A DNA stretch of 31,551 nt from Minisyncoccia bacterium (GCA_038245685.1 JBBRSF010000001.1:1-31551), one strand, 5' to 3'. Counted from the first letter of the stretch, positions 1,624-28,308 are shown. Notes: generated by a model not told the origin, from the letters alone. Numbers and translations: made by a program.

Positions 1624-2616
1624 TTACTTCTTCTTTAAAATTTTTGCCAATTCGTCACTCGTCTTTTTAACTAGTTTATCATCAAAAAGGGACAAAACAA
1701 AAACTTTTTTACTTATCTTTTTAAACGCTGTCACATTTTTCTCGATTATCTTATCCGTCACCATATCACTTTTAGTAAGAATAATTATTTCGTCTTTTGA
1801 GGAAAGTCCTTCATCCCCCAAGTCTAATTTCTCATCATACTGCTCGAGTTCTTTTCTTACTTCTTTGTAGGTAGCCATCATTTTAGGATTCTCGAAGGAA
1901 ACCAAATGTGCCAACATTTTGGTGCGTTTGATATGACGCAAAAATTTAACTCCTAGTCCTTTTCCTTCGGAAGCTCCTTCGATGATTCCTGGAATGTCCG
2001 CAATCACATATCCATAAAAATCTCCGAGGTTCGGATCGAGTGTAGTAAAAGCATAGTCTCCTACTTTGGCTTGAGCATTTGTAAGAGAATTAAGAAGAGA
2101 TGATTTTCCAGCGTTCGGCAGTCCTATCAATCCTATATCCGCAAAAAGTTCTAACTCAATCTTAAAATTCCCTTTCTCTCCTTCACCGCCTAAGCGAGAT
2201 TCTTTCGGTGTAGTATTCGTAGAACTTTTGAAATGTTCATTGCCAAATCCTCCGTAGCCACCTTTAAGCACCATAAACTTCTCACCTTCATCTTTTAATT
2301 GCCAGCTCTCTTCAGTATCAAGATTTGTGACGATAGAACCTATGGGAAGATCCAAATAAAAGTCTTCGCCGTTTGCGCCATGCAGGCTTTTATTGCCTCC
2401 ATCTTCTCCTCGCCCAGCCGAAAAACTTTTCTTTGCTTTATATTTAGAAAGTATATGAATGTCACGAACGGCTATAACAAAAAAATCTCCCCCGCGTCCG
2501 CCGTCTCCGCCAGAAGGTCCACCTTTTGGCACAAATTTCTCCTGTCGCCAACGCACGACTCCGTTCCCGCCGTTTCCTGCAGCGGCTTCTATTTTCATCT
2601 CATCGATAAATGCCAT
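1624..2616 (-). CDS. obgE: GTPase Obg/CgtA (no C-terminal extension)
   Basis: Gly-rich Obg fold (GNGGNG, GGDGGRGGD) and G motifs GLPNAGKS, YAFTT, DIPG and TKSD. Confidence 0.97.
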   Translation of the reverse strand: MAFIDEMKIEAAAGNGGNGVVRWRQEKFVPKGGPSGGDGGRGGDFFVIAVRDIHILSKYKAKKSFSAGRGEDGGNKSLHGANGEDFYLDLPIGSIVTNLDTEESWQLKDEGEKFMVLKGGYGGFGNEHFKSSTNTTPKESRLGGEGEKGNFKIELELFADIGLIGLPNAGKSSLLNSLTNAQAKVGDYAFTTLDPNLGDFYGYVIADIPGIIEGASEGKGLGVKFLRHIKRTKMLAHLVSFENPKMMATYKEVRKELEQYDEKLDLGDEGLSSKDEIIILTKSDMVTDKIIEKNVTAFKKISKKVFVLSLFDDKLVKKTSDELAKILKKK

Positions 2617-2618
2617 AT

Positions 2619-3527
2619 TTATGATTCTACCGCAATTTGAGCAAGTTTAATAGCCCCCTCTTTAGACAGTGCTGACGCCATGAAAAGTGCCCTATGACAA
2701 AAAACTGCGTCAGGTACTCCGGTAACTTTCTGCAATTCTTGATCCGTAAGCCCTGCCCATGAGCTTGGTAGGTCTTTCCGGTTCTCGAAATTCTGCGGAT
2801 TCTTTCGCACAGCTTTCACCCCCCAGCCGTTTCCGGCCTTACGCGGAAAGACTACATAAAGGGGCTCCGAAAAATTAACGAGTACGATGTGTTCGAATGG
2901 ATAATTCTTGTCGAGTATAATAATCCTTTTGTCTTTACTCGTTTCGTATGCTTCTAAAACATCTTTTTCTCCTTCAAGAAAACTCTGTGCCTGAAGTATC
3001 TCCCGATCTATAATTTTTCTGGCAAATGAAACGCAATCTAAAAAAATCTCATCCGTCTTCGAATCATCTTCTTTCCACGTTGGCACCATTGAGTGAAAAA
3101 AGGTTTGAATATAATATGGCGTGATTTCGCTTTTTGGAATAGCCAGATCGATGCCATTATCCGCTGCATCAACAGGCGCACAAAGTTTTTTCTGAATTAT
3201 TTCTGCCGCACGTTTCGATCCAGCCAATTTCTCCCCAAACTTTTTCCAGACAAGACCAAAAGAAGAATATTCTATGCCTTGCGGTCCCTGCCCTGCTCCG
3301 CCTATCTGATGATGATCGAATCTGTTTGCGTTTTCATCATATATTCCACCCACATCAAAAAGATAGTCTCCTGTTTTCAACGCTTCCGGGTCTCGGGAGC
3401 GAATTATTTCATAACTTTCGCCCTCTCGCTCGAGCATCATGCCTAAGGCCGCCGCAGAGAAAATATCATCTGCGTGAAATGCTCCGTTGTGGGTTATTAA
3501 CTTTACTACCTTGTTATTGTTGCTCAT
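2619..3527 (-). CDS. MYG1 (UPF0160) family DHH-type exonuclease
   Basis: Motifs THNGAFHADD, DVGG, FDHHQ and FCHRALF. Start moved from 3551 to the ATG at 3527 (MSNNNK), which reduces the overlap with dedA. Confidence 0.9.
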   Translation of the reverse strand: MSNNNKVVKLITHNGAFHADDIFSAAALGMMLEREGESYEIIRSRDPEALKTGDYLFDVGGIYDENANRFDHHQIGGAGQGPQGIEYSSFGLVWKKFGEKLAGSKRAAEIIQKKLCAPVDAADNGIDLAIPKSEITPYYIQTFFHSMVPTWKEDDSKTDEIFLDCVSFARKIIDREILQAQSFLEGEKDVLEAYETSKDKRIIILDKNYPFEHIVLVNFSEPLYVVFPRKAGNGWGVKAVRKNPQNFENRKDLPSSWAGLTDQELQKVTGVPDAVFCHRALFMASALSKEGAIKLAQIAVES

Positions 3528-4119
3528 TATAATATTCTTCAAATAATTCATATACCCAACTCACTAGTTTATCAAATATAACGTAAATTGCCAGTAAGAC
3601 TATAACCACAAGCAAAAATCTCCAGACCTCCCTACTTACATTTAATGCAGTAAAGCTAAACACATAACCCAGACTGAGCATGATCGGAGCCCAAACTAAA
3701 ATGCTTAGCGCCTCTGCTTTAAAAAATTTCTTATAATCAATTTTTTCGTAACCTGAGAAAATGATAACTATATTGTTTGCGCCCCAAATGAATTTAGATA
3801 TGAAAATAGACCAAAATGGTCTCTTCTTGAATCGCGGCAGAAGTATATAGACACGTTTTTTAATATAATTTAAAATTTTATGATTTTTAAATTTAACGCT
3901 CAGGAATTCTCCTAGGGCATATCCTAGAAACGGCTTAGCGAATGCAGCAATTAAAACAATGATTATAGTAGTGTATAAATTGAGTGCGCCTAAATGCAAC
4001 AAAACTCCCACGGAAATTACAAAAATTTCACCTTCAAATATTACTCCGAGAAAAATTATCGCATAGGTAAGAAGTTGATGATGCTCAACCAATCGTATCA
4101 AAAGATTTACTGTATGCAT
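3514..4119 (-). CDS. DedA/VTT family membrane protein
   Basis: Hydrophobic 201-aa protein with FEGE near the N-terminus, then GYALG, ISKFIWG and a SGYEKIDYKKFF..EALS..VWA segment, as in DedA proteins. Confidence 0.8.
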   Translation of the reverse strand: MHTVNLLIRLVEHHQLLTYAIIFLGVIFEGEIFVISVGVLLHLGALNLYTTIIIVLIAAFAKPFLGYALGEFLSVKFKNHKILNYIKKRVYILLPRFKKRPFWSIFISKFIWGANNIVIIFSGYEKIDYKKFFKAEALSILVWAPIMLSLGYVFSFTALNVSREVWRFLLVVIVLLAIYVIFDKLVSWVYELFEEYYNEQQ

Positions 4120-4134
4120 AAATGGACAGTTTAA

Positions 4135-4584
4135 TTAAAAAAGAGAATCCACCGCTTCTTTGACCACTGTCCCATCTGCCTTACCTTTAAGATCTTTCAT
4201 CAGGGCTGACATAAGCATGCCTTTCTTGGTAGGGTCAGTAATGCCGAGCTCTTCCTTTTTTGCGATTGCTATCTTCTCAACTTCGCTTTTATCCATAAGC
4301 TTCGGCAAATATGTTTCCAATATTTTAAGCTGAGCTTCTTCTTCTTTGACTAGATCTTCCCTTCCTCCTTTTGTGAATTGCTCAATAGAGTCTTTTCTTT
4401 GCTTGGAAAGTCGAGTGATGACTGCGAGAGCATCTGCGTCCTCGAGAATTTCATTGGGCTTCCTGTTCTTTGCAATAAGCTCATTCGTAAAAGCCGATGA
4501 CATACCCCGATAAGTTTCCAAGGAAACAGTATCCTTTGCCATCATTGCCTCTTTTATTTTATTTTTTATTTCTTCCTGCAACAT
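4135..4584 (-). CDS. GatB/YqeY domain protein
   Basis: 149 aa with IKEAMMAKD, KQRKDSIEQFTKGGREDL, ILETYLP and GKADG, the YqeY signature segments. Confidence 0.93.
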   Translation of the reverse strand: MLQEEIKNKIKEAMMAKDTVSLETYRGMSSAFTNELIAKNRKPNEILEDADALAVITRLSKQRKDSIEQFTKGGREDLVKEEEAQLKILETYLPKLMDKSEVEKIAIAKKEELGITDPTKKGMLMSALMKDLKGKADGTVVKEAVDSLF

Positions 4585-4597
4585 AAATTTATTACAT

Positions 4598-4674: not shown

Positions 4675-4710
4675 TTTCTCATTATACCAAATCCATGATA
4701 AAATAGCACC

Positions 4711-5438: not shown

Positions 5439-5502
5439 TTGACAAAATATAATTTTCGTGTAAACTGCTAAGTAATTCGTACAAAAATTTTTAACAAGGA
5501 GG
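5439..5502 (+). promoter_or_regulatory. Sigma70-type promoter and Shine-Dalgarno for the 5511 ORF
   Basis: TTGACA (5439-5444), 16-nt spacer, TAAACT (5461-5466). AGGAGG at 5497-5502 lies 8 nt before the ATG at 5511. Confidence 0.6.
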
Positions 5503-5510
5503 ATCATGCC

Positions 5511-5756
5511 ATGTGGTTAGTAGGAGATGTTCTCGTAATTTTACCGGGAGAGGAAGTGAGGCTGCTGGTAGCAGAAACCCGAGGAAAAATGCTGGTCGCA
5601 ATCGCAGAAGTAGATGTTCCCGAGTGGGTAACCGGCCACAATAACACGTTGAAGGAATTCATCCAACAATTCGCTTGCCGGCACAAGCGAAACACTCAGG
5701 TGGCAACTTCACTCACGGTCTTGCTCCGCTCGGCGCAAGACGCGCACTATATGTAA
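5511..5756 (+). CDS. Orphan hypothetical protein, 81 aa
   Basis: Has its own promoter, an AGGAGG and a terminator directly after the stop. No family recognised. Confidence 0.7.
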   Translation: MWLVGDVLVILPGEEVRLLVAETRGKMLVAIAEVDVPEWVTGHNNTLKEFIQQFACRHKRNTQVATSLTVLLRSAQDAHYM

Positions 5757-5799: not shown

Positions 5800-5815
5800 A
5801 TGTTAAAATAAATAA

Positions 5816-7208: not shown

Positions 7209-7280
7209 TTTGTCCTCCTCTTAACAAATTCAGCGATAATATAGCATACTTCAAAATAAAATGTTATATTTTCCGCACAT

Positions 7281-8118: not shown

Positions 8119-8146
8119 CAGTTAATTATACACTAAAACAAAATAT

Positions 8147-8554: not shown

Positions 8555-8627
8555 AGGAATTAATTATAGCAAACTTTTTACACTTCTTATACAGACATAG
8601 CCATTATATCAAAAATTAAACAATATA

Positions 8628-8714: not shown

Positions 8715-8981
8715 CTACTTCTTAGAAGGCTTTTTAGGAAGTTGGGGCTGAACCCATGTGAACGTAGGAGACTGGCAAACTTCCATTTTGCGTAGAACGA
8801 TGACAGGATTGCTTGGATCCGTAGTCACGATCAAAACCGTCTTGTTCGTGACTTTGAGCATCTCGAAGGCACCGACTCTCCTACACTTTTCCTCGCTTGC
8901 CAGAAGTATTGCGGAACAACTTAGGCAAACGATAACGAACAGGAAAACCTGAAACAACAGAGAGTACTTTGGGCGTTTCAT
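8715..8981 (-). CDS. Orphan small exported protein, 88 aa
   Basis: GGAGG at 8986-8990. Basic N-terminus, then a hydrophobic signal/TM segment, and two Cys in the mature part. Confidence 0.65.
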   Translation of the reverse strand: MKRPKYSLLFQVFLFVIVCLSCSAILLASEEKCRRVGAFEMLKVTNKTVLIVTTDPSNPVIVLRKMEVCQSPTFTWVQPQLPKKPSKK

Positions 8982-9088
8982 GATGCCTCCATTGTTTTAC
9001 TTCTGGTTTTTTGGGATCATACATCACGTCGATTGACATGTTTTCTGTCCTCCCTTTTTCTGACAACTAATTCATTTATAGTATACAC

Positions 9089-10402
9089 CTATTCTGATTT
9101 TTTAAGCCACTCAGCATCTTGTCGGACTAATAGTTTATTTTTATTTTCTTGGTCAAGTAATATATTCGAAATTATCCGCTCCATGCGCATCCCTTGCGAA
9201 CCTTTCACCAGAATGATATCTCCTTTTGAAATAAATTGATCTATAAAATCCTTAGCTTCATAGGCAGTTCCAAATTCGTAAATGTTTTCTTCTTTCATCC
9301 CTCTTTCCACGGCTCCTTCTTTAATAGCCTTTGCACGCTGTCCCACTGTTATTAAAATTCCATTTGTATTTAAAAATATCTTACTCATAAATTCTCCTAT
9401 CTTTTTATGCGCTTCTACGGTATGTTTACCGAGTTCGAGCATATCGCCTAAGATTGCGATTTTCCTGCCATTTTTACTTTCTACTTCTCCGAGTGTTTGG
9501 AGCGCCGTCTCGCAAGCAAATGGAGATGAATTATATGTATCATCAATGATAAGCGAACCATTTATACCCTTTAATAAACGCATTCGCCCCGGAGGAACAT
9601 CATAAAAATTTAGTGAATCTATTGCATCCAACATATTTAAATCAAGCGCCGAGGCGAGTGTGAGCGCAGCAAGCGAAGCATACACATGATTTTTTCCAAA
9701 AACTCCGCTTATGACGACCGGCAAACTCTTGCCTCTCTCGTCGATCCGAAAGACTACTCCCACCGGCTCCCCATTTTCATCATAAGAAATATTATATCCC
9801 GACCCTAAAATGTCTGCCCCCTCATTAAATCCATAACTTACGATATGATTTTGCCCCTTGGCGCTCATCTCTCCTACTGTTTCATCATCTTTATTGATAA
9901 TGAGCACTCCGCTTTTTTTAAGAGTTTTGATAAGCTGACTTTTTTCTTCCACAAGATGTCTTCGAGATGAGAAAAATTCTATGTGCGCAGGCATTTCTCC
10001 TATGGCGGTTATGATAACTGCATCCGTTTTTAACCAAGCAGCAGTTTTTTTCATATCTCCAGGCTTACCAACTCCTACTTCGAGCACTAACCATTTCGGA
10101 TATTTGTGAGGCCACAAAAATAGCCACAATCCATCCATAATGTTTTCCAGCCAGATAATAGGATTATTCCACCCATTGTGGAGGCCTAAAATAGAAAGTG
10201 GTAACCCTATCTCACTATTAAAACTTTTCTCACTCTTCCTTACATATGCCACTTCCGAAAGCACTGCATATACTGCATCTTTGGTAGAAGTTTTTCCTAC
10301 CGAACCAGTGATAGCTACGATCTTCGGTTTGTATTTCCAAAGCACGAGTTCCGACTCAAATTTTAATATGTAATATATAATTTTTTTTAAAGTTAATTTC
10401 AT
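9089..10402 (-). CDS. murF: UDP-N-acetylmuramoyl-tripeptide--D-alanyl-D-alanine ligase
   Basis: Motifs AITGSVGKTSTKD, SFNSEIGLPL, VLEVGV, GRM, IIDDTYNSSP, LGDMLELG and LVKGSQG. Confidence 0.95.
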   Translation of the reverse strand: MKLTLKKIIYYILKFESELVLWKYKPKIVAITGSVGKTSTKDAVYAVLSEVAYVRKSEKSFNSEIGLPLSILGLHNGWNNPIIWLENIMDGLWLFLWPHKYPKWLVLEVGVGKPGDMKKTAAWLKTDAVIITAIGEMPAHIEFFSSRRHLVEEKSQLIKTLKKSGVLIINKDDETVGEMSAKGQNHIVSYGFNEGADILGSGYNISYDENGEPVGVVFRIDERGKSLPVVISGVFGKNHVYASLAALTLASALDLNMLDAIDSLNFYDVPPGRMRLLKGINGSLIIDDTYNSSPFACETALQTLGEVESKNGRKIAILGDMLELGKHTVEAHKKIGEFMSKIFLNTNGILITVGQRAKAIKEGAVERGMKEENIYEFGTAYEAKDFIDQFISKGDIILVKGSQGMRMERIISNILLDQENKNKLLVRQDAEWLKKSE

Positions 10403-10415
10403 TTTATTTCTTTAT

Positions 10416-12131
10416 CTATCGGTCCGGCGGAACGTTATAATAATTCAGCAGAAATTTCGTTATCTCTATAAATGGATCGCTCCAGGTGGTCGCCGCATAA
10501 GGCACGCCTTTCGGATTCACGGCATAGAGAAATACTATGAATTTAGGATCGTAAGCTGGAAAATAGCCGAAAAATGAATGGGTATGCCTATCTGCATAAT
10601 ATCCGCCGTTTGTACTATCCGCAACTTGCGCAGTTCCTGTTTTTACTGCGACGCTAAAATGGTCAAACTTGCCTTTTCCTCCTTTGATTGATTTATCCAT
10701 GACAGTGACCAGCATCCGAGTGATCTCCTGGCTACTTGCTTTGGATATTTTGGTCGGCACTAGAGGATATTTAAGAACTTTGCTCGTAGCGTCGTTGTAT
10801 TTTATTTCTTTTACGATGTGTGGTACTACCAAGTTTCCTCCATTTGCAAGTGAAGCCAAGGCTCTAACTAATTCTACTGGAGTAAGAGCGATACCTTGAC
10901 CGAAAGCAGCGTTCGCATACTCTATCTCTCTAGGACTTTTGATAATTCCCGATACCAATCCACTTGTTTCATTCGGTAGATCAATTCCTGTTTTATCTTT
11001 GATTCCATACCCGAGCATATAATCCCTAAATTTCACCTTACCAAGTTTTTGCTCTACAAACACCATTCCTGTGTTCAAAGACTGATTAAGCACGTCTTGC
11101 ATAGAAGTTCCCGGACCACGTCCCTTTTTGTCAAAATTAAATATCTCATGCTTCTCGATAGTTACTGAGCCTTTATCATCATAAGTCGTCTCCGCATTGA
11201 GTACGCCTGCATCGAGCGCAGCCGCCATTACTAGGGGCTTTACCACAGATCCGAATTCGAGAACGTTCTCTACGAGTGGATTCGAGAATAAATTTACATT
11301 CTTTGTCTGAGAAAAATTATTCGGATCAAAATCCGGTTTCGCACTAAGAGCATACATAGAGCCATCTACGGGATTCATTATTATCCCGCCTATTGAGTCT
11401 ATCTGATATTTTGCCCTCACTTCTGCCAGTTTCTTCTCTAGAAATCCCTGCACTTGGGGTTCGATAGTAGTGACGATATCTCCTTCCGGAGCATCTTTTG
11501 CAAAGAAAGTTTTTTTGATATTTGAAAATACTTCCGCAAAGAAATTTATATAGGGACTGTCTACATTCCTAGCCAGTGTAGTGTCATACTGTCTCTCCAG
11601 TCCGTATCTACCTCCTAACAAATCTCCTTTGTAACCTACTAATCCAACAGTGTGAGAAGCTAACTCGTGCCCCGGATAAAGACGCCATTTTTCTTTATAA
11701 ATACTTACCCCGGGGATTTTTAAGGCTGATACTGCATCAGCCACATCTTTGGACAAGTGCGTCGCAATTTCTTCATAAGGATCATTTTTCTTCGCCGTTT
11801 TTATAAGGAAATCCGCTTGATTTATAGGAGTATATTTATTGAGCTTCTGATATACAGAAGTTGGGTTTGTTATTTTCTCAGAATTTATTGCAATCTTATA
11901 CCCGAGTGTCTGTGTAGCGGCGGAAACAAGCTCACCGTTTTTTGTATAAAAATAAATTGTACCTCTTTCATAAATATTCGTAGAAGGCGTAGCGTATTGA
12001 TGGTCGGCTGCATCCGAATATGTGGAACCATGTATGACCTGTATAAAAAAAAGCTTAGTCAAAAGAATAAGCGCAAAAACGATAAGAAAAAAAAATAGTA
12101 CTCTGGATCTGACAACAAAACTAGATTTCAT
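10416..12131 (-). CDS. ftsI: Class B penicillin-binding protein (FtsI/PBP2 type)
   Basis: N-terminal TM segment, dimerisation domain with ERG and G..GLE, and transpeptidase motifs SVVK (SxxK), SLN (SxN) and KTG. Sits in dcw context. Confidence 0.9.
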   Translation of the reverse strand: MKSSFVVRSRVLFFFLIVFALILLTKLFFIQVIHGSTYSDAADHQYATPSTNIYERGTIYFYTKNGELVSAATQTLGYKIAINSEKITNPTSVYQKLNKYTPINQADFLIKTAKKNDPYEEIATHLSKDVADAVSALKIPGVSIYKEKWRLYPGHELASHTVGLVGYKGDLLGGRYGLERQYDTTLARNVDSPYINFFAEVFSNIKKTFFAKDAPEGDIVTTIEPQVQGFLEKKLAEVRAKYQIDSIGGIIMNPVDGSMYALSAKPDFDPNNFSQTKNVNLFSNPLVENVLEFGSVVKPLVMAAALDAGVLNAETTYDDKGSVTIEKHEIFNFDKKGRGPGTSMQDVLNQSLNTGMVFVEQKLGKVKFRDYMLGYGIKDKTGIDLPNETSGLVSGIIKSPREIEYANAAFGQGIALTPVELVRALASLANGGNLVVPHIVKEIKYNDATSKVLKYPLVPTKISKASSQEITRMLVTVMDKSIKGGKGKFDHFSVAVKTGTAQVADSTNGGYYADRHTHSFFGYFPAYDPKFIVFLYAVNPKGVPYAATTWSDPFIEITKFLLNYYNVPPDR

Positions 12132-12477
12132 TTGGAGACATCTTTAAGCTACCAAGAGCTTTACGGGTAGCGAAAGTTGGTTTGTTTTCTTTGAAACCCA
12201 TAGAGGCAGACATAGCTAAATCTACATGGTTGGATAAAGACAAATACGAAAGTTCGAGGTTTCCTACTTCGTTGGTAAGTGCCAAAGCCTCTTTTTCTAA
12301 AGACTTTCTGGCTACAATATTGAAAACCGTATTCCCCAGGGTAGTTATATATAAAATAGTTAGGAAGCCCAAGATCATAAGCATTGAATTTAAAATAACT
12401 CTAGAAACCTCCACATTGTTGTTCATTATATGAACGTTTTGTATACTTGTTTTTAATCTTATGGTTGCTTGTTTCAT
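12121..12477 (-). CDS. Probable cell division protein FtsL
   Basis: Lies between rsmH and ftsI. Single TM segment, short coiled coil and an A...GF ending, as in FtsL. The call rests mainly on synteny. Confidence 0.65.
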   Translation of the reverse strand: MKQATIRLKTSIQNVHIMNNNVEVSRVILNSMLMILGFLTILYITTLGNTVFNIVARKSLEKEALALTNEVGNLELSYLSLSNHVDLAMSASMGFKENKPTFATRKALGSLKMSPNEI

Positions 12478-12481
12478 ATTT

Positions 12482-13396
12482 TTATTTAATTTTTTCTAAA
12501 ATTCTTAACTTTGCGCTTCTTGATCGGGGATTATTTTTTAATTCTTCGCTCCCGGCAAGAATAGGTTTTTTGTTTATTAAAATTGCTCTTTGTTCTTTTT
12601 GCTTTGCTTTGTAAAATCTTTTCACTACCCTGTCTTCGAGACTATGAAACGATATTACGGACATGCGTCCTCCTTCTTTTAACACCTCCCATCCTTTGTT
12701 TAATCCCCTTTCTAATGCCCCCAGTTCATCGTTTACGGCTATTCTTAGGGCTTGGAATGTTCTAGTGGCACAGTGTACCTTTTGTCTCTTATATGACCTT
12801 CCTACCGCGCCCTCGATTATCTCCACCAAATCCTTCGTTGTCTTTATCTCTTTCTCTGCTCTTCCTTCTACAATCGCTTTTGCTATTCGTCGGGAGAGTT
12901 TTTCTTCGCCGTATCCGTAGATGATATCGGCTAAACTTTTCTCTTCCCAAGTATTCACTATATCTATCGCAGTCAGGTCTTCACTTGTTGGATCCTCTTT
13001 CATGGTCATGAGTAGTGGCTCATCTTTCATGAAAGAAAATCCACGTCCGGAATTCTCAAGCTGGTCAGAACTTAATCCTAAGTCAAAGAGAATGGCATCT
13101 ACTTTCGCAATCTTTTCTCCCTCCAGGGCTTTGTCTAAGTTTGCAAAATTTTCATTAATAAGTTTTATGTCACATTCTAAACCTTTGAACTTACTCTCCG
13201 CCTTTATAAATGCGCTTTGGTCTTGATCTAAAGCAATTATTTTTATGCCTTGATGTCGCTTGCACATCTCGGCGCTATGACCTCCGCCCCCAAACGTCGC
13301 ATCTAAGACTATTGAACTAGTAGCTAGATTTAGACTTTCTATTGCTTCATTTAAAAGAACTGTCTTGTGTACACTTTCGATCATTTCCTCTCGCAT
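12482..13396 (-). CDS. rsmH: 16S rRNA m4C1402 methyltransferase
   Basis: Motifs HKTVLL.E, DATFGGGGHS, DLGLSSDQL, RGFSF, ATRTFQALRIAVNDEL, SFHSLEDR and NPRSRSAKLR. Start set at the ATG at 13396, just after the mraZ stop. Confidence 0.97.
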   Translation of the reverse strand: MREEMIESVHKTVLLNEAIESLNLATSSIVLDATFGGGGHSAEMCKRHQGIKIIALDQDQSAFIKAESKFKGLECDIKLINENFANLDKALEGEKIAKVDAILFDLGLSSDQLENSGRGFSFMKDEPLLMTMKEDPTSEDLTAIDIVNTWEEKSLADIIYGYGEEKLSRRIAKAIVEGRAEKEIKTTKDLVEIIEGAVGRSYKRQKVHCATRTFQALRIAVNDELGALERGLNKGWEVLKEGGRMSVISFHSLEDRVVKRFYKAKQKEQRAILINKKPILAGSEELKNNPRSRSAKLRILEKIK

Positions 13397-13397
13397 C

Positions 13398-13850
13398 TTA
13401 TTTCCCTCTTGCCCCACTTTCGGCAAGCTTTTCCGCTAAATGTCCGACTTGCTTCTCGATGGCATCTTGATTCTGCGACCAAGTCTTGTCATTCCATATC
13501 TCCACTCTGTCCTCTACTCCGATAATAGCTGCTTTATCTTTCAGTCCGATTCTATCTTTAAGAAAATCCGGAATTAAGATTCTCCCGATAGAATCTACCT
13601 CGACTTCGGCAGCGCGACCGAACATGTATCGGTTGAAACTTCGCTGATCGGCTTTTAGGAAGGAAAGATCGGCGCTAGCATCCGCTAGACGCTTACTTAC
13701 TTTCGCCCAATCTTTCAAAGTGAAAATGAACAAGCATGCATCAAGTCCAGGTGTAATAATAATTTTCTTTCCCATGACTTTTCGAAACTTCACAGGAAGT
13801 GAAACTCTATTCTTATCATCAATTGTGTGTATGTATTCTCCGATGAGCAT
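13398..13850 (-). CDS. mraZ: Division/cell wall cluster transcriptional repressor MraZ
   Basis: Motifs GEY.HTIDDKNRVSLP.KFR and DSIGRILIP (two SpoVT-AbrB repeats). Confidence 0.97.
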   Translation of the reverse strand: MLIGEYIHTIDDKNRVSLPVKFRKVMGKKIIITPGLDACLFIFTLKDWAKVSKRLADASADLSFLKADQRSFNRYMFGRAAEVEVDSIGRILIPDFLKDRIGLKDKAAIIGVEDRVEIWNDKTWSQNQDAIEKQVGHLAEKLAESGARGK

Positions 13851-13952: not shown

Positions 13953-13991
13953 CTATGATTAGAAATATTTACCGAGATGTATAATGAAAAT

Positions 13992-14321
13992 ATGAGTATA
14001 TTTGAATTTAGAACAACAAAAGAAGGCGATGTAAATATAGGAGGAATCGTTCGGGCTCCAGGAGAAGATGAACCTCTACCCCAAAAGATGCATGGCATGA
14101 ATCCCGAAGATGTAGCTAGAAATAAAGCATACGAAGAAAAAGAAATTGCTTTTCTTTCACATATGCTAGATACAACAGAATTCTTCGGACATAAATGGAC
14201 TGCGGGAGAAGTGATAAAAAATCCAAAAGTGCACGATGCAGTAGCCAAAAAACTTCCAGAAAAATTTCGATACGGCAAACTCGATGAGCATTTGAAAACT
14301 CTGGCTATGTCTACAAATTAA
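13992..14321 (+). CDS. Hypothetical protein (~109 aa)
   Basis: The ORF track starts it at 13977, but TATAAT at 13980-13985 lies 6 nt before the in-frame ATG at 13992. A terminator follows the stop. Confidence 0.7.
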   Translation: MSIFEFRTTKEGDVNIGGIVRAPGEDEPLPQKMHGMNPEDVARNKAYEEKEIAFLSHMLDTTEFFGHKWTAGEVIKNPKVHDAVAKKLPEKFRYGKLDEHLKTLAMSTN

Positions 14322-14345: not shown

Positions 14346-14385
14346 TTGACTTATACTATCTTTTGTGATATACTATAAAAGGAGG
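14346..14385 (+). promoter_or_regulatory. Near-consensus sigma70 promoter and Shine-Dalgarno
   Basis: TTGACT, 17-nt spacer, TATACT with an extended TGn. AGGAGG at 14380-14385 lies 6 nt before the ATG at 14392. Confidence 0.8.
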
Positions 14386-14391
14386 TAAGAC

Positions 14392-14589
14392 ATGACTAAA
14401 ATCATGCTCAAAAAAATTCCTGCGGGTTTCGGGGACGAAGGTCTCGAGATCGTAAACCCGGATATCCCGGGAGTTACGATCGTGAAAAAAGAGGATTTCG
14501 TTATTCTCGAAATCGAAGACGGATACGTCGGCCGAGTCGTTCTCGACATCTCTGAAAAAGGAATCGACTACGACTTCGAAAAATCGTAA
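14392..14589 (+). CDS. Orphan acidic small protein, 65 aa
   Basis: Complete expression signals (promoter, AGGAGG, terminator). No family recognised. Confidence 0.8.
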   Translation: MTKIMLKKIPAGFGDEGLEIVNPDIPGVTIVKKEDFVILEIEDGYVGRVVLDISEKGIDYDFEKS

Positions 14590-16103: not shown

Positions 16104-16167
16104 CTCAATATTCTACACAATTTGGGAACAAAGGGAAAGACAAAAGACAAAAATAGAAAGTATTAGA

Positions 16168-19978: not shown

Positions 19979-20016
19979 TTTATCCACCACGTGACGCATA
20001 GTGTATAATGGAAGAT

Positions 20017-20943
20017 ATGACTTATGACCTAATAATTATAGGCGGAGGGCCAGCTGGCACCGCGGCGGCAGTATATGCAGCAAGGAAGCGTTTAAAGACC
20101 CTTTTTATTACCCAAGAATGGGGTGGACAGAGCGTAGTATCTGAACAAATATTTAATTGGATAGGCACTCCCTCGCTCTCTGGTAACGACCTCGCAGCTA
20201 ATTTAAAAAAACATGTTTTAGCGAACACGGGCGAAAGCCTAGAAATAGCTGAAGGAGAAAAGGTAAACTCTCTTACAAAAAACGGGGATATTTTTTTAAT
20301 GAAAACCGAATCCGGAAAAGAATTTTCTGGAAAAACCGTCCTAATAGCTACGGGAAGTAGCCGAAGAAAGATTACCGCTCTTAATGCAGACAAATTTGAG
20401 AACAAGGGTCTCACCTATTGTGCTTCATGTGATGGGCCTCTTTTTGCAGACATGGATGTGGCAGTGATAGGAGGAGGCAATGCGGGCTTTGAATCAGCTG
20501 CTCAACTACTCGCCTACTGTAAATCTGTAACTCTCATAAACAGAAGCGACACTTTCAAAGCAGATGAAGTAACAGTAGAAAAAGTATTGAGAAATCCAAA
20601 GATGAAGGCCTTAAAGAATATCGAAACTTTAGAAGTAAAAGGAGACAAATTTGTGGAAGGCTTAGTATACAAAGATAGCACAACCGGCGAAACTCACGAG
20701 CTTGCTGTCTCGGGCATCTTTGCGGAGGTAGGACAAATCCCAAATACGGACTTTGTAAAAGGCTTGGTGCCACTCGACGACATAGGCAGAGTCAAGATAG
20801 ACGCACGGTCTCAAAAAACAGAAACAGCTGGAATATGGGCAGCTGGAGACTGCACCAATGTCCTCTATCATCAGAACAACATCGCCGCAGGCGATGCAGT
20901 GCGGGCGCTCGAAGACATATATCTAGCTATTCACGCGAAATAA
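20017..20943 (+). CDS. trxB: Thioredoxin reductase-like FAD/NAD(P)H disulfide oxidoreductase
   Basis: Motifs GGGPAG, redox-active YCASCDG, VIGGGNAG and AAGDC. Start placed at the ATG at 20017, 7 nt after TATAAT (20004-20009). Could be an AhpF C-terminal-like paralog. Confidence 0.8.
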   Translation: MTYDLIIIGGGPAGTAAAVYAARKRLKTLFITQEWGGQSVVSEQIFNWIGTPSLSGNDLAANLKKHVLANTGESLEIAEGEKVNSLTKNGDIFLMKTESGKEFSGKTVLIATGSSRRKITALNADKFENKGLTYCASCDGPLFADMDVAVIGGGNAGFESAAQLLAYCKSVTLINRSDTFKADEVTVEKVLRNPKMKALKNIETLEVKGDKFVEGLVYKDSTTGETHELAVSGIFAEVGQIPNTDFVKGLVPLDDIGRVKIDARSQKTETAGIWAAGDCTNVLYHQNNIAAGDAVRALEDIYLAIHAK

Positions 20944-21284: not shown

Positions 21285-21325
21285 TTGACTTTTTAGATAT
21301 TTTAGATATAGTTTGCGAGAGGAGG
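21285..21325 (+). promoter_or_regulatory. Promoter and Shine-Dalgarno for the TonB-C-like gene
   Basis: TTGACT, 16-nt spacer, TATAGT. AGGAGG at 21320-21325 lies 7 nt before the ATG at 21333. Confidence 0.65.
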
Positions 21326-21332
21326 AGTGGGA

Positions 21333-21944
21333 ATGAAAACAATACTGATTGCTCTTTGCCTGATCGTGCTGTCGTCAATGCAGGCCGGGGCTACCGAGCC
21401 TCGCTTGATCCAAGGCACCAAACCAAAGTACACCCCTCAAGCGATCAAAATGAACATTGAGGGCACGACGTCCTTTCGAGTAATAGTGGACACCAACGGC
21501 AAGGTGACCGAAGTTACTGAGTTGGTGAGTCACTTCAGAATGAAGACTCGGAAAGAACCTACCGAGTCAGAACTGGCGGAATTCACCAAAGCCAGTATAA
21601 GTCTGGTGACCGCCACGAAAGAAAAGATTCACCAATGGGAGTTTACTCCCGCCTGTATGAACGGCAACGAGACGATGGTAGTCATCGCTATTACCATCGA
21701 GTTTCATTTGCCGCCCCCACGGGACGACTTACAGCAAAAGATTTATCACCTGCCGATCGACGAAGACATCGAAAAAGTTCTTTTGATTCATGTAAAAAAG
21801 GAGAGAACAATGGCTCTGAAAACCACGAGCAAGATTTACGACATTGAGCAACTCGAGAAGGAAATGTTGCAACTGGCGATCCTCGCCACCCGCATTCCCC
21901 CACGCCGACACAAACGTCGGCAAAGAAAAAAGAGGCGACATTAG
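21333..21944 (+). CDS. Exported protein with a TonB C-terminal-like domain and a basic tail
   Basis: Signal peptide MKTILIALCLIVLSSMQAGA. PKYTPQA..MNIEGT..F.V.VD.NGKV and W.FTPA..NG......I.IEF match the TonB_C pattern. Confidence 0.7.
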   Translation: MKTILIALCLIVLSSMQAGATEPRLIQGTKPKYTPQAIKMNIEGTTSFRVIVDTNGKVTEVTELVSHFRMKTRKEPTESELAEFTKASISLVTATKEKIHQWEFTPACMNGNETMVVIAITIEFHLPPPRDDLQQKIYHLPIDEDIEKVLLIHVKKERTMALKTTSKIYDIEQLEKEMLQLAILATRIPPRRHKRRQRKKRRH

Positions 21945-22087: not shown

Positions 22088-22148
22088 ATTTACGCTTCTT
22101 ATACTATATTATTTTTAATAAAATCGCAAAAACATTATAATAGACTTT

Positions 22149-22748: not shown

Positions 22749-22764
22749 TATATAATCATCTCAC

Positions 22765-23520
22765 ATGGAAAACGATAAAATCAAAATATTGATTCTAGCT
22801 GCAGGCAAGGGCAAGCGCATGGAGTCCGACGAGCCCAAAGCTTTAGCGCTTCTACGCGGAAAGCCATTCTTGCAACATATACTCGAAACGGTGGCCAAAC
22901 TCCACATAAAGATAAAACCCGTTATAATCATAGGCTACAAAAAAGAAAGAATTCAAGAAGTTTTAGGAACTGAACATATGTATGCAATTCAGCATGAACA
23001 GTTAGGAACTGGACATGCAGTAGCATCTGCGAAAAGTGTCATAAACTCTCCCCATGAGACTATACTCATTCTCGCCGCAGATCAGCCTATGGTTTCCAAA
23101 GAAACTCTAGAAAAAATTATCAAACATCATCAAAAAATGCATCCGATTTTGACTCTTGCTACTGTGAAAATTCCTGATTTTGAAGATTGGCGCAAGGGAC
23201 TTCTGTCTTTCGGAAGAATTGTTCGGGACAGCTCCGGTAAAATTTCTAAAATCGTAGAAGCTAAAGATGCAGATGATGGAGAAAAAGAAATAAAAGAATT
23301 AAACCCCGCCGTGTATGCATTTGATGCGAACTGGCTCTGGGCAAATATCGGCAGGCTTAGCAAGAACAATGCCCAGAATGAATATTATTTAACCGACCTA
23401 GTGAAAATGGCTTTCGAGCAAAAGATGAAAATTGAGTCGGTGGAAATGGAAAATATCATTGAAGCTATGCAGCCTAATTCCAAAGAGGAACTTGAAACAC
23501 TGGAAGGTCTGGTAGTATAA
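22765..23520 (+). CDS. Sugar-1-phosphate nucleotidyltransferase, GlmU N-terminal domain only
   Basis: Motifs ILAAGKGKRM.S..PKAL, Q.EQLGTGHAV, GRIVRD, EYYLTD. Ends at 251 aa with no hexapeptide repeats. Confidence 0.85.
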   Translation: MENDKIKILILAAGKGKRMESDEPKALALLRGKPFLQHILETVAKLHIKIKPVIIIGYKKERIQEVLGTEHMYAIQHEQLGTGHAVASAKSVINSPHETILILAADQPMVSKETLEKIIKHHQKMHPILTLATVKIPDFEDWRKGLLSFGRIVRDSSGKISKIVEAKDADDGEKEIKELNPAVYAFDANWLWANIGRLSKNNAQNEYYLTDLVKMAFEQKMKIESVEMENIIEAMQPNSKEELETLEGLVV

Positions 23521-23531
23521 TATAGAGCCAC

Positions 23532-24749
23532 ATGCAAAATCCATTTCAAAATGCTATGACCCAGCTCGACAAGCTTGCTCAAATAAAAAAATTTGAGGAA
23601 TCTTTCATCGAGCGCTTACGACAACCAAATCGAGATATTCGCATATCTATCCCCGTAAAGATGGATGATGGAACTATTAAAATTTTTGAAGGCTACAGAG
23701 TCGAATACAACAATGCTCTCGGTCCCTACAAAGGTGGTATCAGGTATCATCCTGATACCGAAGTAAATGAAGTGAAGGCACTTGCCTTTTGGATGGCTTT
23801 GAAGTGTGCAGTGGCCAACATCCCGATGGGTGGAGGCAAAGGTGGTATCACCGTCGACCCTACAAAATTATCTAAGGGCGAACTCGAACGACTTTCTCGC
23901 GGATGGGTACGAGGATTAGGAGATGTATTGGGTCCAAAGAAAGATGTCCCTGCCCCGGACGTAAATACTACACCCGAGATCATGGCTTGGATGGCAGATG
24001 AATTTGAAAAAATATCGGGAGATAAAACAGGAGCGACATTTACAGGCAAACCGCTTGATAAAGGAGGATCTGAAGGTAGAGGCCCTGCTACGGGAATGGG
24101 CGGGTTTTATGTCTTTGACGCATTAAGAGAAAGATTAGGACTTCCCGAAAAATGCAAAATAGTAATTCAGGGATTTGGAAACGTCGGCTCCAATGCAGCA
24201 GAGATATTTGAAAGTCATGGTCATACTATTATCGCCTTGTCTGACTCTAAGACGGCAATTACAAACGAAGAAGGACTCGATGTGAAAGCAGTCGAGAAAC
24301 ATAAAAAAGATACAGGATCGCTCAGAGATTTCCCTGGAGCAAAAAATATTTCAAACGAAGAACTTTTAGAACTACCTTGCGATGTTCTTATCCCTGCTGC
24401 ATTTGAAAACCAAATCACCGACAAAAATGCAGACAACATAAAAGCAAAAGTTGTGCTCGAACTTGCCAACGGCCCCACTACCCCCGAAGCCGACGAAGTG
24501 CTTTTCAAAAAAAATATATCAGTTATCCCAGACATACTCGCAAACTCGGGCGGAGTAACAGTCTCATACTTTGAGTGGGATCAAAATCTAAAGAACGAAC
24601 ATTGGAGCGAATCAGAAGTTCTAGCCAAACTCCTCCCCCTTATGAACGAGGCAGCCAAAAAAGTTTACGAAAAATCTCAAGAATACAAAACTCACTTGCG
24701 CATGGGTGCTTTTCTCCTTGCCCTTGAAAGGATCGAGGCAAAGATGTAA
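23532..24749 (+). CDS. gdhA: Glu/Leu/Phe/Val dehydrogenase (glutamate dehydrogenase type)
   Basis: Motifs GPYKGGIRYHP, GGGKGG, PAPDVNT, QGFGNVG, ELANGP, NSGGV.VSYFEW.QN. Confidence 0.93.
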   Translation: MQNPFQNAMTQLDKLAQIKKFEESFIERLRQPNRDIRISIPVKMDDGTIKIFEGYRVEYNNALGPYKGGIRYHPDTEVNEVKALAFWMALKCAVANIPMGGGKGGITVDPTKLSKGELERLSRGWVRGLGDVLGPKKDVPAPDVNTTPEIMAWMADEFEKISGDKTGATFTGKPLDKGGSEGRGPATGMGGFYVFDALRERLGLPEKCKIVIQGFGNVGSNAAEIFESHGHTIIALSDSKTAITNEEGLDVKAVEKHKKDTGSLRDFPGAKNISNEELLELPCDVLIPAAFENQITDKNADNIKAKVVLELANGPTTPEADEVLFKKNISVIPDILANSGGVTVSYFEWDQNLKNEHWSESEVLAKLLPLMNEAAKKVYEKSQEYKTHLRMGAFLLALERIEAKM

Positions 24750-24844: not shown

Positions 24845-24845
24845 C

Positions 24846-24954: not shown

Positions 24955-24962
24955 ACAATATT

Positions 24963-26129
24963 ATGAGAATTTTAAGCATTGAGACGTCGTGCGACGATAC
25001 GGGCATAAGTATAATGGAAGCAAAAGGAGGCATCACAAATGCTTCTTTTAAAGTTCTCGGTGACACCGTCTCTTCACAAATTGATATTCATATCCCCTTC
25101 GGCGGAGTTTATCCTGCCCTTGCTAAACGTGAGCACATCAAGAACCTTCCGATCGTCCTTGAAAAAACTTTAAAGAAAGCAAGACTAGAAAACAAAAAGA
25201 AACCTGTAGATGTGATATCGGTGACAATGGGCCCCGGGCTCGAACCAGCTCTCTGGACAGGGATAGTCTTCGCTAAAGAACTCGGCAAGAAATGGGATGT
25301 GCCAGTTATCCCCGTAAACCATATGGAAGGTCATATTCTTTCTGTATTTGGAAAAAATAAAGGTCAATTTAAAATTACTACCAAGAAAAATCCTATTTTA
25401 TCTCTTTTAGTCTCTGGAGGACACACTGAACTCGTTCTCGTAAAAAAATGGGCTGATTACAAGATCATAGGGCAAACCCTCGATGATGCAGTCGGAGAAG
25501 CCTTCGACAAGGTTGCCCGCATGCTCGGTCTTCCCTATCCTGGCGGACCACAGATTTCCAATCTAGCACAAGAAGCCAGAGCCTTTAGCGAGCGAAGCAT
25601 TGCGCAGGTTGACGAACCGAGCATAGCAAAAAATCAGCAGATTTTTATGCGCGCTGAGTCCGCGAAAGGCTCTAGCGCATCTTTCTCTCTTTCTCTTTCT
25701 TTGCCTCGCCCTATGCTTTATAGTAAAAATTTTGATTTTTCATATTCGGGACTCAAAACAGCTGTTTTATATTTAATTAAAGACTTAGGAGGATTAGAGA
25801 AAATAAGCGAAAAGACAAAAGCACAAATTGCACTTGAATTTGAAAATGCAGCTATCGAATGTCTAATTAAAAAAACTGGGAAAGCAATCGACGCCTATAA
25901 AATAAAAACATTGATAGTAGGCGGTGGAGTATCAGCGAACAAATACTTGCGGAGCGAAATGAAAAAGCTTGCCAAAGAAAAGAAAGTAGAACTTCTATTC
26001 CCTGCCAAAGAACTTTCGACTGACAACTCCATCATGATAGGCATAGCTGGATATTTAAAATATCTAAAAATAAAAAACAAAATCCCAAAAGTGGAAAGTA
26101 TCAAGGCGACTGGTAATTTAAGGCTTTAA
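24963..26129 (+). CDS. tsaD: tRNA N6-adenosine threonylcarbamoyltransferase TsaD, with an in-frame insertion
   Basis: Motifs ILSIETSCDDT, GGVYP.LA.REH, GPGL, NHMEGH, LLVSGGHTEL, DDAVGEAFDKVAR.LGLPYPGGP, FSYSGLKT, GGGVSAN, TDNSIMIG. Start reset from 24855 to 24963. Confidence 0.97.
   Translation: MRILSIETSCDDTGISIMEAKGGITNASFKVLGDTVSSQIDIHIPFGGVYPALAKREHIKNLPIVLEKTLKKARLENKKKPVDVISVTMGPGLEPALWTGIVFAKELGKKWDVPVIPVNHMEGHILSVFGKNKGQFKITTKKNPILSLLVSGGHTELVLVKKWADYKIIGQTLDDAVGEAFDKVARMLGLPYPGGPQISNLAQEARAFSERSIAQVDEPSIAKNQQIFMRAESAKGSSASFSLSLSLPRPMLYSKNFDFSYSGLKTAVLYLIKDLGGLEKISEKTKAQIALEFENAAIECLIKKTGKAIDAYKIKTLIVGGGVSANKYLRSEMKKLAKEKKVELLFPAKELSTDNSIMIGIAGYLKYLKIKNKIPKVESIKATGNLRL
25575..25676. 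mobile_element. 102-nt palindromic element inserted in frame in tsaD
   Basis: Terminal inverted repeat GCCAGAGCCTTTAGCG/CGCGAAAGGCTCTAGC (14 of 16 match). Length is exactly 34 codons. Confidence 0.65.
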
Positions 26130-26152
26130 CCCTTCGACAGGCTCAGGGCAAA
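26130..26152. repeat. Short REP-like palindrome between tsaD and valS
   Basis: CCCT-TCGACAGGCTC-AGGG directly after the tsaD stop. GC-rich in an AT-rich spacer. Confidence 0.55.
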
Positions 26153-26169
26153 TATGATAATATGGACAC

Positions 26170-28308
26170 ATGGATGAAAGGTTATTGAAGCCGTACGACT
26201 CAAAAAATACAGAAGATAGGATATACAAGCTTTGGGAAGAGTCCGGTTTTTTTAACCCCGATAAAAGGCCTGACTGGGCAAATGATCCCGCGACAAATAA
26301 AAACTTCGACAAAACTTTCTCTATTGTCCTCCCTCCTCCGAATGCTACTGGGGTACTCCACTTAGGGCATGCTCTTGAAGACTCCATGCAAGATACGATG
26401 ATTCGCTTCAATCGTATGCAAGGAAAGCAAACACTTTGGGTGCCGGGCACTGATCATGCTGCCATAGCCACAGACTCAAAAGTTACAAAAATTTTAGAAA
26501 AAGAAGGGCTGAAGAAAAAAGATATCGGCAGAGAAAAATTCCTAGAGCGTGTAGATAAGTTTGTCGATGATAGTCGAAAAACAATCGTAAGCCAGCTAAG
26601 GAAGATAGGCGCATCGCTCGACTGGTCTCGAGAAGCATTTACGTATGACCAAGAACGCAACATCGCCGTTCGCACAGCATTTAAGAAAATGTATGATGAC
26701 GGACTTATATATCGCGGTCATAGGATCGTTAACTGGGATCCAAAAGGCCAAACAGTTATTTCCGATGATGAAATAGTTTACGAAGAGAGAAAAGGAAAAT
26801 TCTACACTTTTAAATACGGACCATTTAATATAGGCACAGCGCGCCCTGAGACAAAATTTGGAGACAAATACGTAGTTATGCATCCTAACGACGAAAGATA
26901 TAAAGATTGGCAGCATATGCAGAAGATCACTTTAGAATGGATTAATGGGCCTATAGAGGCGACCATCATAAAAGACGAAATGATAGACATGGAATTCGGC
27001 ACGGGCGTCATGACCATTACTCCATGGCATTCTCATGAAGATTTTGCCCTCGCAGAAAAATATAAACTAGACAAAGAACAAATAATTGACCAGTACGGGA
27101 AACTTCTTCCTGTCGCGGAAGAGTTTGCGGGGATGAAAATTACCGACGCTAGAGAAAAAATAGTAGAGAAGCTCAAGGAAAAAGGACTCTTGGTATCTAT
27201 AGATGAGAACTATGTAAACAGAGTGGCTACTGCTGAAAGAACAGGAGGAGTAATAGAACCGCAAATAATGCTCCAATGGTTCGTGGATGTAAATAAAAAA
27301 ATCCCTACTCGAGGAGACAACTCACTCAAAGAGCTTATGCTTCTGCCCGTCCGAAACGGTGAGATAAAAGTTCTCCCCGATCACTTTGAAAAAGTTTACT
27401 TTAATTGGATCGAGAATTTGCGGGATTGGTGTATATCTCGGCAGATATGGTATGGCCACCGCATACCTGTATGGTATCGTTCGGCCCATCTCACGACAAG
27501 TAAAAGGGAAGAAATATATGTAGGAATAGAAGCACCTAAAGAAACGGGATGGACCCAAGATGAAGATACACTAGACACTTGGTTCTCTTCCGGACTTTGG
27601 ACTTTCTCCACTTTAGGATGGCCGGATATAAATGCGTCTGACTTAAAAAGATTTCATCCGACCAATGTTATAAATCCCGGCTATGAAATACTATTTTTCT
27701 GGGTGGCGAGAATGATATTAATGTCCCAATACCTACTAGGAGAAGTTCCTTTCAAAACTGTCTATCTACATGGCATGCTTCGAGACGCGAAAGGTCAAAA
27801 ATTCAGTAAATCCCTGGACAATGGTGTGGACCCGATTGAAATAATAAATGAGTATGGAGCCGATGCTCTCCGTATGTCGATGATCGTGGGTATAGGTCCT
27901 GGAGCAGATGGAAAATTCGACATTCAAAAAGTAAAGGCTTATAGTAAGTTTTCGAACAAGATTTGGAACATAACTCGATATATTCTGTCGCAAGAAAATT
28001 CAGGAAGTTTGAAAAAGGATTTGATAGATGAATTTAATACTTTAGCTAACGATATTACCTCAGATATGAACAATTACCGTTTTTATCTTGCCGCAGAAAA
28101 AATCTACGCTTACTTATGGCATCGCCTAGCTGATGAGATTATCGAGGAAAGTAAAAATAATCCCGATTATAATGCTACCCTTTATTACATTCTAGAAAAT
28201 TCACTTAAAATACTTCACCCCTTTATGCCCTTTGTTACTGAAGAAATTTGGTCGATGATGCCTATTGAAAACAAAAATCTTCTAATGATAGAAAAGTGGC
28301 CTATATGA
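26170..28308 (+). CDS. valS: Valine--tRNA ligase, short form without the C-terminal coiled coil
   Basis: Motifs PPPNATG.LHLGH, WVPGTDHA.IAT, DWCISRQIWYGHRIP, DTLDTWFSS, KFSKS. 712 aa. Confidence 0.97.
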   Translation: MDERLLKPYDSKNTEDRIYKLWEESGFFNPDKRPDWANDPATNKNFDKTFSIVLPPPNATGVLHLGHALEDSMQDTMIRFNRMQGKQTLWVPGTDHAAIATDSKVTKILEKEGLKKKDIGREKFLERVDKFVDDSRKTIVSQLRKIGASLDWSREAFTYDQERNIAVRTAFKKMYDDGLIYRGHRIVNWDPKGQTVISDDEIVYEERKGKFYTFKYGPFNIGTARPETKFGDKYVVMHPNDERYKDWQHMQKITLEWINGPIEATIIKDEMIDMEFGTGVMTITPWHSHEDFALAEKYKLDKEQIIDQYGKLLPVAEEFAGMKITDAREKIVEKLKEKGLLVSIDENYVNRVATAERTGGVIEPQIMLQWFVDVNKKIPTRGDNSLKELMLLPVRNGEIKVLPDHFEKVYFNWIENLRDWCISRQIWYGHRIPVWYRSAHLTTSKREEIYVGIEAPKETGWTQDEDTLDTWFSSGLWTFSTLGWPDINASDLKRFHPTNVINPGYEILFFWVARMILMSQYLLGEVPFKTVYLHGMLRDAKGQKFSKSLDNGVDPIEIINEYGADALRMSMIVGIGPGADGKFDIQKVKAYSKFSNKIWNITRYILSQENSGSLKKDLIDEFNTLANDITSDMNNYRFYLAAEKIYAYLWHRLADEIIEESKNNPDYNATLYYILENSLKILHPFMPFVTEEIWSMMPIENKNLLMIEKWPI

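Follow-up and report, generated by a model that had tools for sequence, protein, structure and literature searches.

Predicted leaderless genes with -10 boxes next to their start codons in a Paceibacteria genome

Genes of the window and the boxes before their start codons

The stretch of DNA analysed here (hereafter, the window) is 31,551 bases long and represents all of contig C1 of the metagenome-assembled genome (MAG) of a Minisyncoccia bacterium, which comprises 573,561 bases in 54 contigs, with 39.6% GC and an estimated completeness of 92%. Many genes of the window carry, a few nucleotides (nt) before the ATG, a hexamer resembling the -10 element of bacterial promoters. An earlier note on this DNA, made from the sequence alone, listed eleven such genes, commented on the lack of GGAGG before them and proposed that leaderless or near-leaderless initiation is a main route in this organism. 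Each of the eleven boxes is indeed present at the distance from the ATG that the note gave, GGAGG occurs upstream of 0/11 of these genes, and the Pfam matches agree with the gene names, namely, Obg, an RNase T/ExoX-like exonuclease, RmuC, a DUF1003 protein, LysS, TrxB, a glycosylase of the uracil-DNA glycosylase (UDG) family, a nucleotidyltransferase and glutamate dehydrogenase (gdhA, 23532-24749). The neighbouring genes are also of the housekeeping kind and include gatB, an mraZ-rsmH-PBP-Mur ligase cluster, greA, ftsA, ftsZ, tsaD and genes for a class I tRNA synthetase and Hsp20. The nearest LysS-encoding loci, at 80-83% identity, belong to MAGs that carry the label Candidatus Nomurabacteria or Paceibacterota, which places the organism in Parcubacteria/Paceibacteria (Candidatus Nomurabacteria), within the candidate phyla radiation (CPR).

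For counting, a box was defined as a TAnnnT hexamer ending 6-8 nt before the ATG, and the spacer as the nucleotides between the hexamer and the ATG. By this definition, 15 of the 35 window genes have a box, a count that the background rate would produce with a probability of about 1e-7 to 1e-6. Four of the window genes with this layout are additional to those of the earlier note, namely, those starting at 26170, 29884 (minus strand) and 30718 (minus strand) and, weakly, a VTT gene starting at 4119 (minus strand). The positions of the boxes and of the other features are collected in Table 1.

Table 1. Candidate -10 boxes and other features of the window, with coordinates counted from its first base
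Gene or feature	Element	Coordinates	Strand	Position and remarks
obg	-10 TAGAAT	2624..2629	-	7 nt before ATG 2616; within 3' end of upstream MYG1-family gene
RNase T/ExoX-like exonuclease	extended -10 TGaTAAAAT	4696..4704	+	6 nt before ATG 4711
rmuC	extended -10 TGtTAAAAT	5801..5809	+	6 nt before ATG 5816
198-aa ORF, no Pfam family	-10 TATAAT	8125..8130	-	6 nt before ATG 8118
DUF1003 gene	extended -10 TGcTATAAT	8563..8571	-	8 nt before ATG 8554
109-aa ORF	-10 TATAAT	13980..13985	+	6 nt before ATG 13992
lysS	-10 TAGAAT	16110..16115	-	6 nt before ATG 16103
trxB	-10 TATAAT	20004..20009	+	7 nt before ATG 20017
UDG	-10 TATAAT	22136..22141	+	7 nt before ATG 22149
Nucleotidyltransferase (GlmU-N-like)	-10 TATAAT	22751..22756	+	8 nt before ATG 22765; box starts 3 nt past UDG stop codon
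gdhA	overlapping TATAAT (10 nt) and TAATAT (8 nt)	23516..23523	+	before ATG 23532
Class I aminoacyl-tRNA synthetase	extended -10 TGaTAATAT	26155..26163	+	6 nt before ATG 26170; -35 TCGACA at 18 nt
85-aa ORF	extended -10 TGcTAATAT	29891..29899	-	6 nt before ATG 29884
GGDEF-domain gene	extended -10 TGaTAATAT	30725..30733	-	6 nt before ATG 30718
tRNA-Glu (7281)	TGTTATATT extended -10	7262-7270	+	10 nt from mature 5' end
tRNA-Arg (30792)	TGTTATATT extended -10	30768-30776	+	15 nt from mature 5' end
mraZ-rsmH-(118-aa ORF)-PBP-Mur ligase cluster	contrast case	9089..13850	-	no 6-8 nt box at any of five genes
Gene with AAGGAG(G)/GGAGG motif		5491-5756	+	
Gene with AAGGAG(G)/GGAGG motif		14372-14589	+	
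Gene with AAGGAG(G)/GGAGG motif		8881-9066	-	
Gene with AAGGAG(G)/GGAGG motif		21313-21944	+	

A genome-wide peak at a spacer of six nucleotides

Across the genome, 601 genes were called with a self-trained dicodon model, the start being set at the first ATG of each open reading frame (ORF); stop-codon usage is consistent with genetic code 11. As the null model, the 60 nt upstream of the starts were shuffled 300 times with their dinucleotides preserved, and 2,645 internal in-frame ATGs served as a second control. Plotting the distance from TAnnnT to the start codon against shuffled sequence reveals a sharp peak at a spacer of exactly 6 nt, with 124 of 563 genes versus 20.6 ± 4.6 in the shuffles (z = 22.7), and for spacers of 6-8 nt taken together, 191 genes versus 60 ± 7.4. 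The spacer-6 hexamer precedes 21.7% of 576 first ATGs, whereas the share is 1-3% for other offsets and for internal ATGs, and a hexamer at 6-8 nt precedes 33% of all genes, versus 4.5% of internal ATGs. The extended form, TGnTAnnnT, is concentrated in the same positions, with counts of 66, 16 and 10 at spacers 6, 7 and 8, respectively, versus 0.5-1.7 per position elsewhere. The signal thus does not dissolve into the AT-rich background, and the earlier note's claim survives this comparison. The layout is a property of the genome and lineage rather than of the window alone.

The boxes resemble sigma70 promoters

When the 193 genes with a box are aligned on the hexamer, features for which they had not been selected come into view: at -15 and -14, T and G reach 61% and 56%, respectively, 48% of the boxes are preceded by TGn, and there is a weak -35 TTG (55/50/30% at -35 to -33). 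Among genes with a spacer of 6 nt, position -1 is a pyrimidine in 71%. A bias at this position extends to other genes: T immediately precedes the start codon in 52% of all genes and in 53% of those lacking a box, with G in only 6%, and for the latter set the promoter start-site preference does not explain the bias. Furthermore, 8 of 34 tRNA genes, two of which are located in the window, have TGnTAnnnT 8-20 nt upstream of their mature 5' end, and this position marks it as a signal of transcription rather than of translation; the distances would imply very short pre-tRNA leaders. The genome encodes RpoD (403 aa, with regions 1.1, 1.2, 2, 3 and 4), and the rpoD gene is itself preceded by TAGAAT 8 nt before its ATG (locus L195, ~603-615). 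The box hexamers thus bear the marks of sigma70 extended -10 promoters, with TGn, a weak -35 and a region-3 sigma factor all present.

With sigma70 of the E. coli type, the hexamer usually ends 6 nt before +1, and an A at +1 that follows a pyrimidine at -1 is preferred for starts. Given this geometry and the modal spacer of 6 nt, transcription would start on the A of the AUG. The spacer-6 mode, the frequency of TGn, the boxes of tRNA genes and the presence of RpoD all argue for the reading, offered by the earlier note, of the boxes as promoters that put +1 on or near the AUG.

Start codons and conservation of the boxes

Comparison of orthologues is consistent with the start codons next to the boxes. 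LysS orthologues (46-83% identity) have the same first residues, and the first methionine of a TrxB orthologue lines up with the ATG at 20017, the start that the earlier note had chosen, and not with that at 20008. Pfam domains start at residues 3-9. In the case of the 109-aa ORF, the in-frame ATG at 13977, upstream of that at 13992, would fall outside the predicted transcript.

Conservation of the boxes was assessed in 100-kb samples of two genomes of the same genus, using orthologues with coinciding N-termini. A box is found in 19 of 26 orthologues if the gene has one here and in 4 of 30 if it has none (Fisher p = 7.5e-6). The aligned upstream regions share little besides TGnTAnnnT and its distance to the ATG, and the sequence of the 6-nt spacer itself differs. 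Retention of box and spacing despite the divergence of the flanks and the spacer suggests that the position of the box is under selection. At greater phylogenetic distance, the promoter is not tied to the gene: a TGn-type box 6-9 nt before the ATG was found in only 8 of 17 lysS orthologues, the others closely following an upstream gene. In two other orders, rmuC orthologues are also preceded by a box, with a spacer of 6 or 8 nt.

Shine-Dalgarno motifs, the 16S rRNA tail and translation factors

The genome overall makes no use of Shine-Dalgarno (SD) motifs: GGAG, GAGG or AGGA at a spacer of 4-12 nt precedes 7.3% of starts, versus 10.2% of internal ATGs. The MAG assembly contains no 16S gene, and the 16S 3' end, whose inspection the earlier note had proposed, was read in relatives, where CCTCC/CCUCC is missing from the 3' tail in all full-length genes (0/11; 6 same-genus and 5 same-order genomes). 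In these relatives, helix 45 is followed by AATAATTCAAT or a variant thereof, as opposed to GATCACCTCCTTA in other bacteria. In a wider sample, 29 of 30 16S genes at the level of the phylum carry the anti-SD, as do about half of 29 at the level of the class, the latter share matching the 48% for Parcubacteria in Tsurumaki et al. (PMC9297842). Alternative pairing with the 16S tail of the genus was considered and dropped, as complementary 5-mers precede 26% of the genes lacking a box versus 30% in shuffles.

Among the translation factors, a six-frame search of the 92%-complete genome gave no match to uL1 (PF00687), while the control gave hits in 14 of 14 genomes, and bS21 (PF01165) was not found in it either. 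The S1 protein is a 370-aa, four-domain protein, and IF3 is also encoded.

Operon context and routes of initiation

The frequency of boxes depends on the distance to the preceding gene. A box at 6-8 nt is found before 45% of divergently oriented genes and before 43-46% of same-strand genes that lie 11-60 nt behind their neighbour, and the share falls to 21% for genes with a gap of 0-10 nt and to 6% for overlapping genes. The difference between gaps of up to 10 nt (18% with a box) and those of 11-60 nt (45%) is significant (Fisher p = 1.2e-6), and the earlier note's suggestion that genes within apparent operons have promoters of their own therefore holds statistically. In closely spaced same-strand genes, such as obg and gdhA, the boxes sit in the last codons of the upstream gene. 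As an observation in its own right, the TATAAT of gdhA (23516-23521) includes the TAA (23518-23520) with which the preceding nucleotidyltransferase gene ends, such that one hexamer would serve as stop codon and promoter element. The mraZ cluster presents the contrast case, its internal genes either overlapping the end of the previous gene or starting no more than 14 nt from it.

Classified by these features, 33% of the genes have a box with a spacer of 6-8 nt. Starts no more than 10 nt from the stop codon of the preceding gene make up another 20%, boxes with spacers of 9-15 nt a further 13%, and 34% of the genes show none of these. Among the stop-coupled genes, there are peaks for gaps of 1-4 nt and for overlaps of 4 nt. 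As a main route, predicted leaderless initiation thus extends to about a third of the genes, and to about 45% of the divergent ones. For the genes with neither box nor coupling, a third route must exist, which is probably S1-dependent binding to A-rich leaders.

One further candidate of the window, tsaD, was not counted as leaderless: a TACAAT lies only 3 nt before its ATG at 24963, which does not fit the leaderless geometry. The tsaD ORF is open from 24855, right behind a tRNA-Val gene, and the Pfam TsaD domain begins at residue 30 if translation starts at 24963.

The layout in other Patescibacteria

The comparative sample covers 20-100 kb per genome with starts set at the first ATG, so that small differences between genomes mean little. 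Within it, genomes of the same genus and order show a strong spacer-6 peak (25-37% of genes at 6-8 nt), as does one other member of the class lacking the anti-SD, and the peak is absent in three members of the class that bear the anti-SD. The predicted leaderless layout is thus widespread but patchy in the phylum. A strict coupling of the layout to the loss of the anti-SD is not supported by the comparative sample, the link between the two being loose across the phylum.

A different combination was observed in four CPR relatives (G184, G149, G265 and G245), which keep a CCUCC anti-SD while their SD motifs do not exceed the internal-ATG control (for instance, 2.3% versus 9.2% in G184). Three of these (G149, G265 and G245) are without the leaderless peak, and G184 shows a weak one. 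By their sequences, the anti-SD is kept but the SD apparently unused in all four, a Bacteroidia-like state in other CPR lineages.

Proposed explanation and its alternatives

We consider it highly probable that about a third of the genes of this organism are transcribed from sigma70 extended -10 promoters abutting the ATG, yielding leaderless, SD-free mRNAs in a lineage that, judging by relatives, lacks the anti-SD. The promoters would be of the form TGnTAnAAT with a weak -35, and with the hexamer ending 6 nt, or less often 7-8 nt, before the ATG, the polymerase would start on the A of the AUG or 1-2 nt before it. The ribosome would then bind the leaderless mRNA through its 5'-terminal AUG and the initiator tRNA, with no SD pairing. 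A downstream gene on the same strand, where SD-led internal initiation is unavailable, would be served either by re-initiation a few nucleotides past the stop codon or by its own leaderless promoter within the 3' end of the upstream gene. This explanation builds on the motif with its spacing and the promoter-type sequence around it, on its occurrence upstream of tRNA genes and retention in orthologues, on SD motifs not being enriched and on the anti-SD loss of relatives, all of which we demonstrate; from these we infer where transcription actually starts, by which route the ribosome initiates and that there is a causal tie to the loss of the anti-SD. A more sweeping version, in which the ribosome of this order of Parcubacteria has lost the ability to start at internal SD sites and every cistron is served by its own leaderless promoter, often within the final codons of the preceding gene, or by stop-proximal re-initiation, and in which the loss of the anti-SD shaped gene spacing and promoter placement genome-wide, is offered tentatively and seems rather doubtful; if true, it would describe a natural, nearly SD-free bacterial translation system.

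Could the pattern be an artefact that arises where AT richness meets wrongly called start codons? The low GC content of the genome and the first-ATG rule used to call starts would favour such an artefact, but no shuffle ever produced more than 35 genes at spacer 6, against the 124 observed, internal ATGs have boxes at the low rate given above, and the N-termini of orthologues agree. The artefact is therefore rejected by the shuffle and internal-ATG controls, and we assign it next to no probability. Hardly more credible is the notion that the mRNAs are leadered and that the TA-rich hexamer serves in them not as a promoter but for ribosome binding without SD, or as a 'Kozak-like' element, in the manner of Bacteroidia. 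SD motifs are unused, as that notion would have it, and the region from -11 to -2 upstream of the start is A-rich in all gene classes, including that without boxes. However, the TG at -15/-14 and the TTG at -35 correspond to contacts of RNA polymerase that have no role in mRNA, the motif also precedes tRNA genes, the 5-mers complementary to the 16S tail of relatives are not enriched upstream of genes (26% versus 30% in shuffles), and this tail is itself variable within the order.

A closer competitor, though still an unlikely one, accepts the promoters as real but has transcription start mostly 1-5 nt before the AUG, such that the mRNAs would have very short leaders rather than being strictly leaderless, and might be translated through 30S subunits with S1 instead of the 5'-AUG route. 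Boxes at 7 and 8 nt (39 and 37 of the 193, respectively), the smaller excess at 9-15 nt (78 genes, partly by chance), the TATAAT of gdhA at 10 nt and the four-domain S1 are all compatible with short leaders. By contrast, the mode lies at exactly 6 nt (117 of 193 TAnnnT and 66 of 92 TGn boxes), the canonical distance from -10 to +1, and the A at +1 and the pyrimidine at -1 form the dinucleotide preferred for starts. The gdhA box at 10 nt and the boxes at 7-8 nt may well give rise to leaders of 1-4 nt, and leaders shorter than about 5 nt are usually regarded as functionally leaderless.

Several observations weigh against leaderless initiation from start-abutting promoters as set out above. The +1 positions are predicted from geometry of the E. 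coli type, and look-ups with a 9,951-base and a 1,901-base stretch of this DNA gave no public RNA run containing it. Some gene starts are wrong, since the caller follows the simple first-ATG rule, and the anti-SD state is taken from relatives. About a third of the genes have neither a box nor tight coupling, so that another route of initiation must exist. In the comparative sample, the spacer-6 peak is only weak in several other Paceibacteria lacking the anti-SD and is clear in three genomes that bear it (G072, G055 and G199), one of which, G072, additionally uses SD sites (34%). Finally, an anti-SD-less ribosome does not explain some 25 GC-richer genes with a good AAGGAG(G)/GGAGG motif 6-9 nt before the ATG. 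Genes with an SD motif (core of at least 5 nt) have a mean GC content of 0.46 versus 0.395 and a median length of 203 aa; the rate of strong SD motifs, 4.2% of genes, is not above that at internal ATGs (3.7%), and it is the quality and spacing of the motifs that stand out.

Relation to known systems

Should the predicted starts be confirmed, leaderless mRNAs and stop-start coupling would take the place of SD pairing in a large lineage of uncultured bacteria, which would account for how the ribosomes of anti-SD-less Parcubacteria find start codons and would provide a bacterial counterpart to the leaderless-dominated archaea. In practical terms, gene callers that expect SD motifs would mis-set starts in such genomes, as exemplified in the window by trxB (20017 versus 20008) and the 109-aa ORF (13992 versus 13977), and CPR genes with their native upstream sequence may go untranslated in E. 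coli unless a ribosome-binding site is added.

Leaderless initiation is already known as a mode of gene start, and the element of novelty lies in the lineage: in the literature on leaderless genes in Patescibacteria, CPR, Parcubacteria, Paceibacteria and Minisyncoccota, we found no paper describing the start-abutting promoter layout. One close parallel is the subgroup of Parcubacteria lacking the anti-SD and uL1 (Tsurumaki, Saito, Tomita and Kanai, 2022, RNA 28:1041, PMC9297842), together with the SD-scarce organisms that lack CCUCC, Campbellbacteria and Wolfebacteria among them (PLoS One 2024, PMC10783764). Our genome resembles that subgroup in its Parcubacteria taxonomy, in the 16S tails of relatives without CCUCC, in uL1 and bS21 not being found and in the scarcity of SD motifs. 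Both studies cover the rRNA and the loss of SD only, and report neither -10 boxes abutting starts nor a replacement for the SD. SD-independent initiation of the Bacteroidia type, as in Flavobacterium johnsoniae (GeneMarkS-2 group B; PMC6847099), is similar in that SD motifs are unused and starts are immediately preceded by A-rich sequence. Unlike here, however, Bacteroidia retain the anti-SD and have leadered mRNAs, whereas the relatives of our organism lack the anti-SD and its dominant signal appears to be a promoter at the start codon.

The layout itself is best compared with GeneMarkS-2 group C, which includes the leaderless-rich Actinobacteria (e.g. Mycobacterium tuberculosis and Streptomyces) and Deinococcus-Thermus (e.g. 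D. deserti) and in which a Pribnow box lies 6-8 nt before the start in 25-50% of promoter-proximal genes (PMC6028130). Similarly, a Pribnow box 6-8 nt upstream is found here in 33% of all and 45% of divergent genes, with the ATG at the predicted 5' end, and by these sequence features the genome would join the class. There are, nevertheless, differences between the two. Non-leaderless genes of group C use SD sites, whereas this genome shows no SD enrichment; its candidate promoters are AT-rich, of the extended -10 kind, and belong to a genome of 0.57 Mb with 40% GC; and, unlike in group C, same-strand genes at close spacing have a box just as often as divergent genes do.

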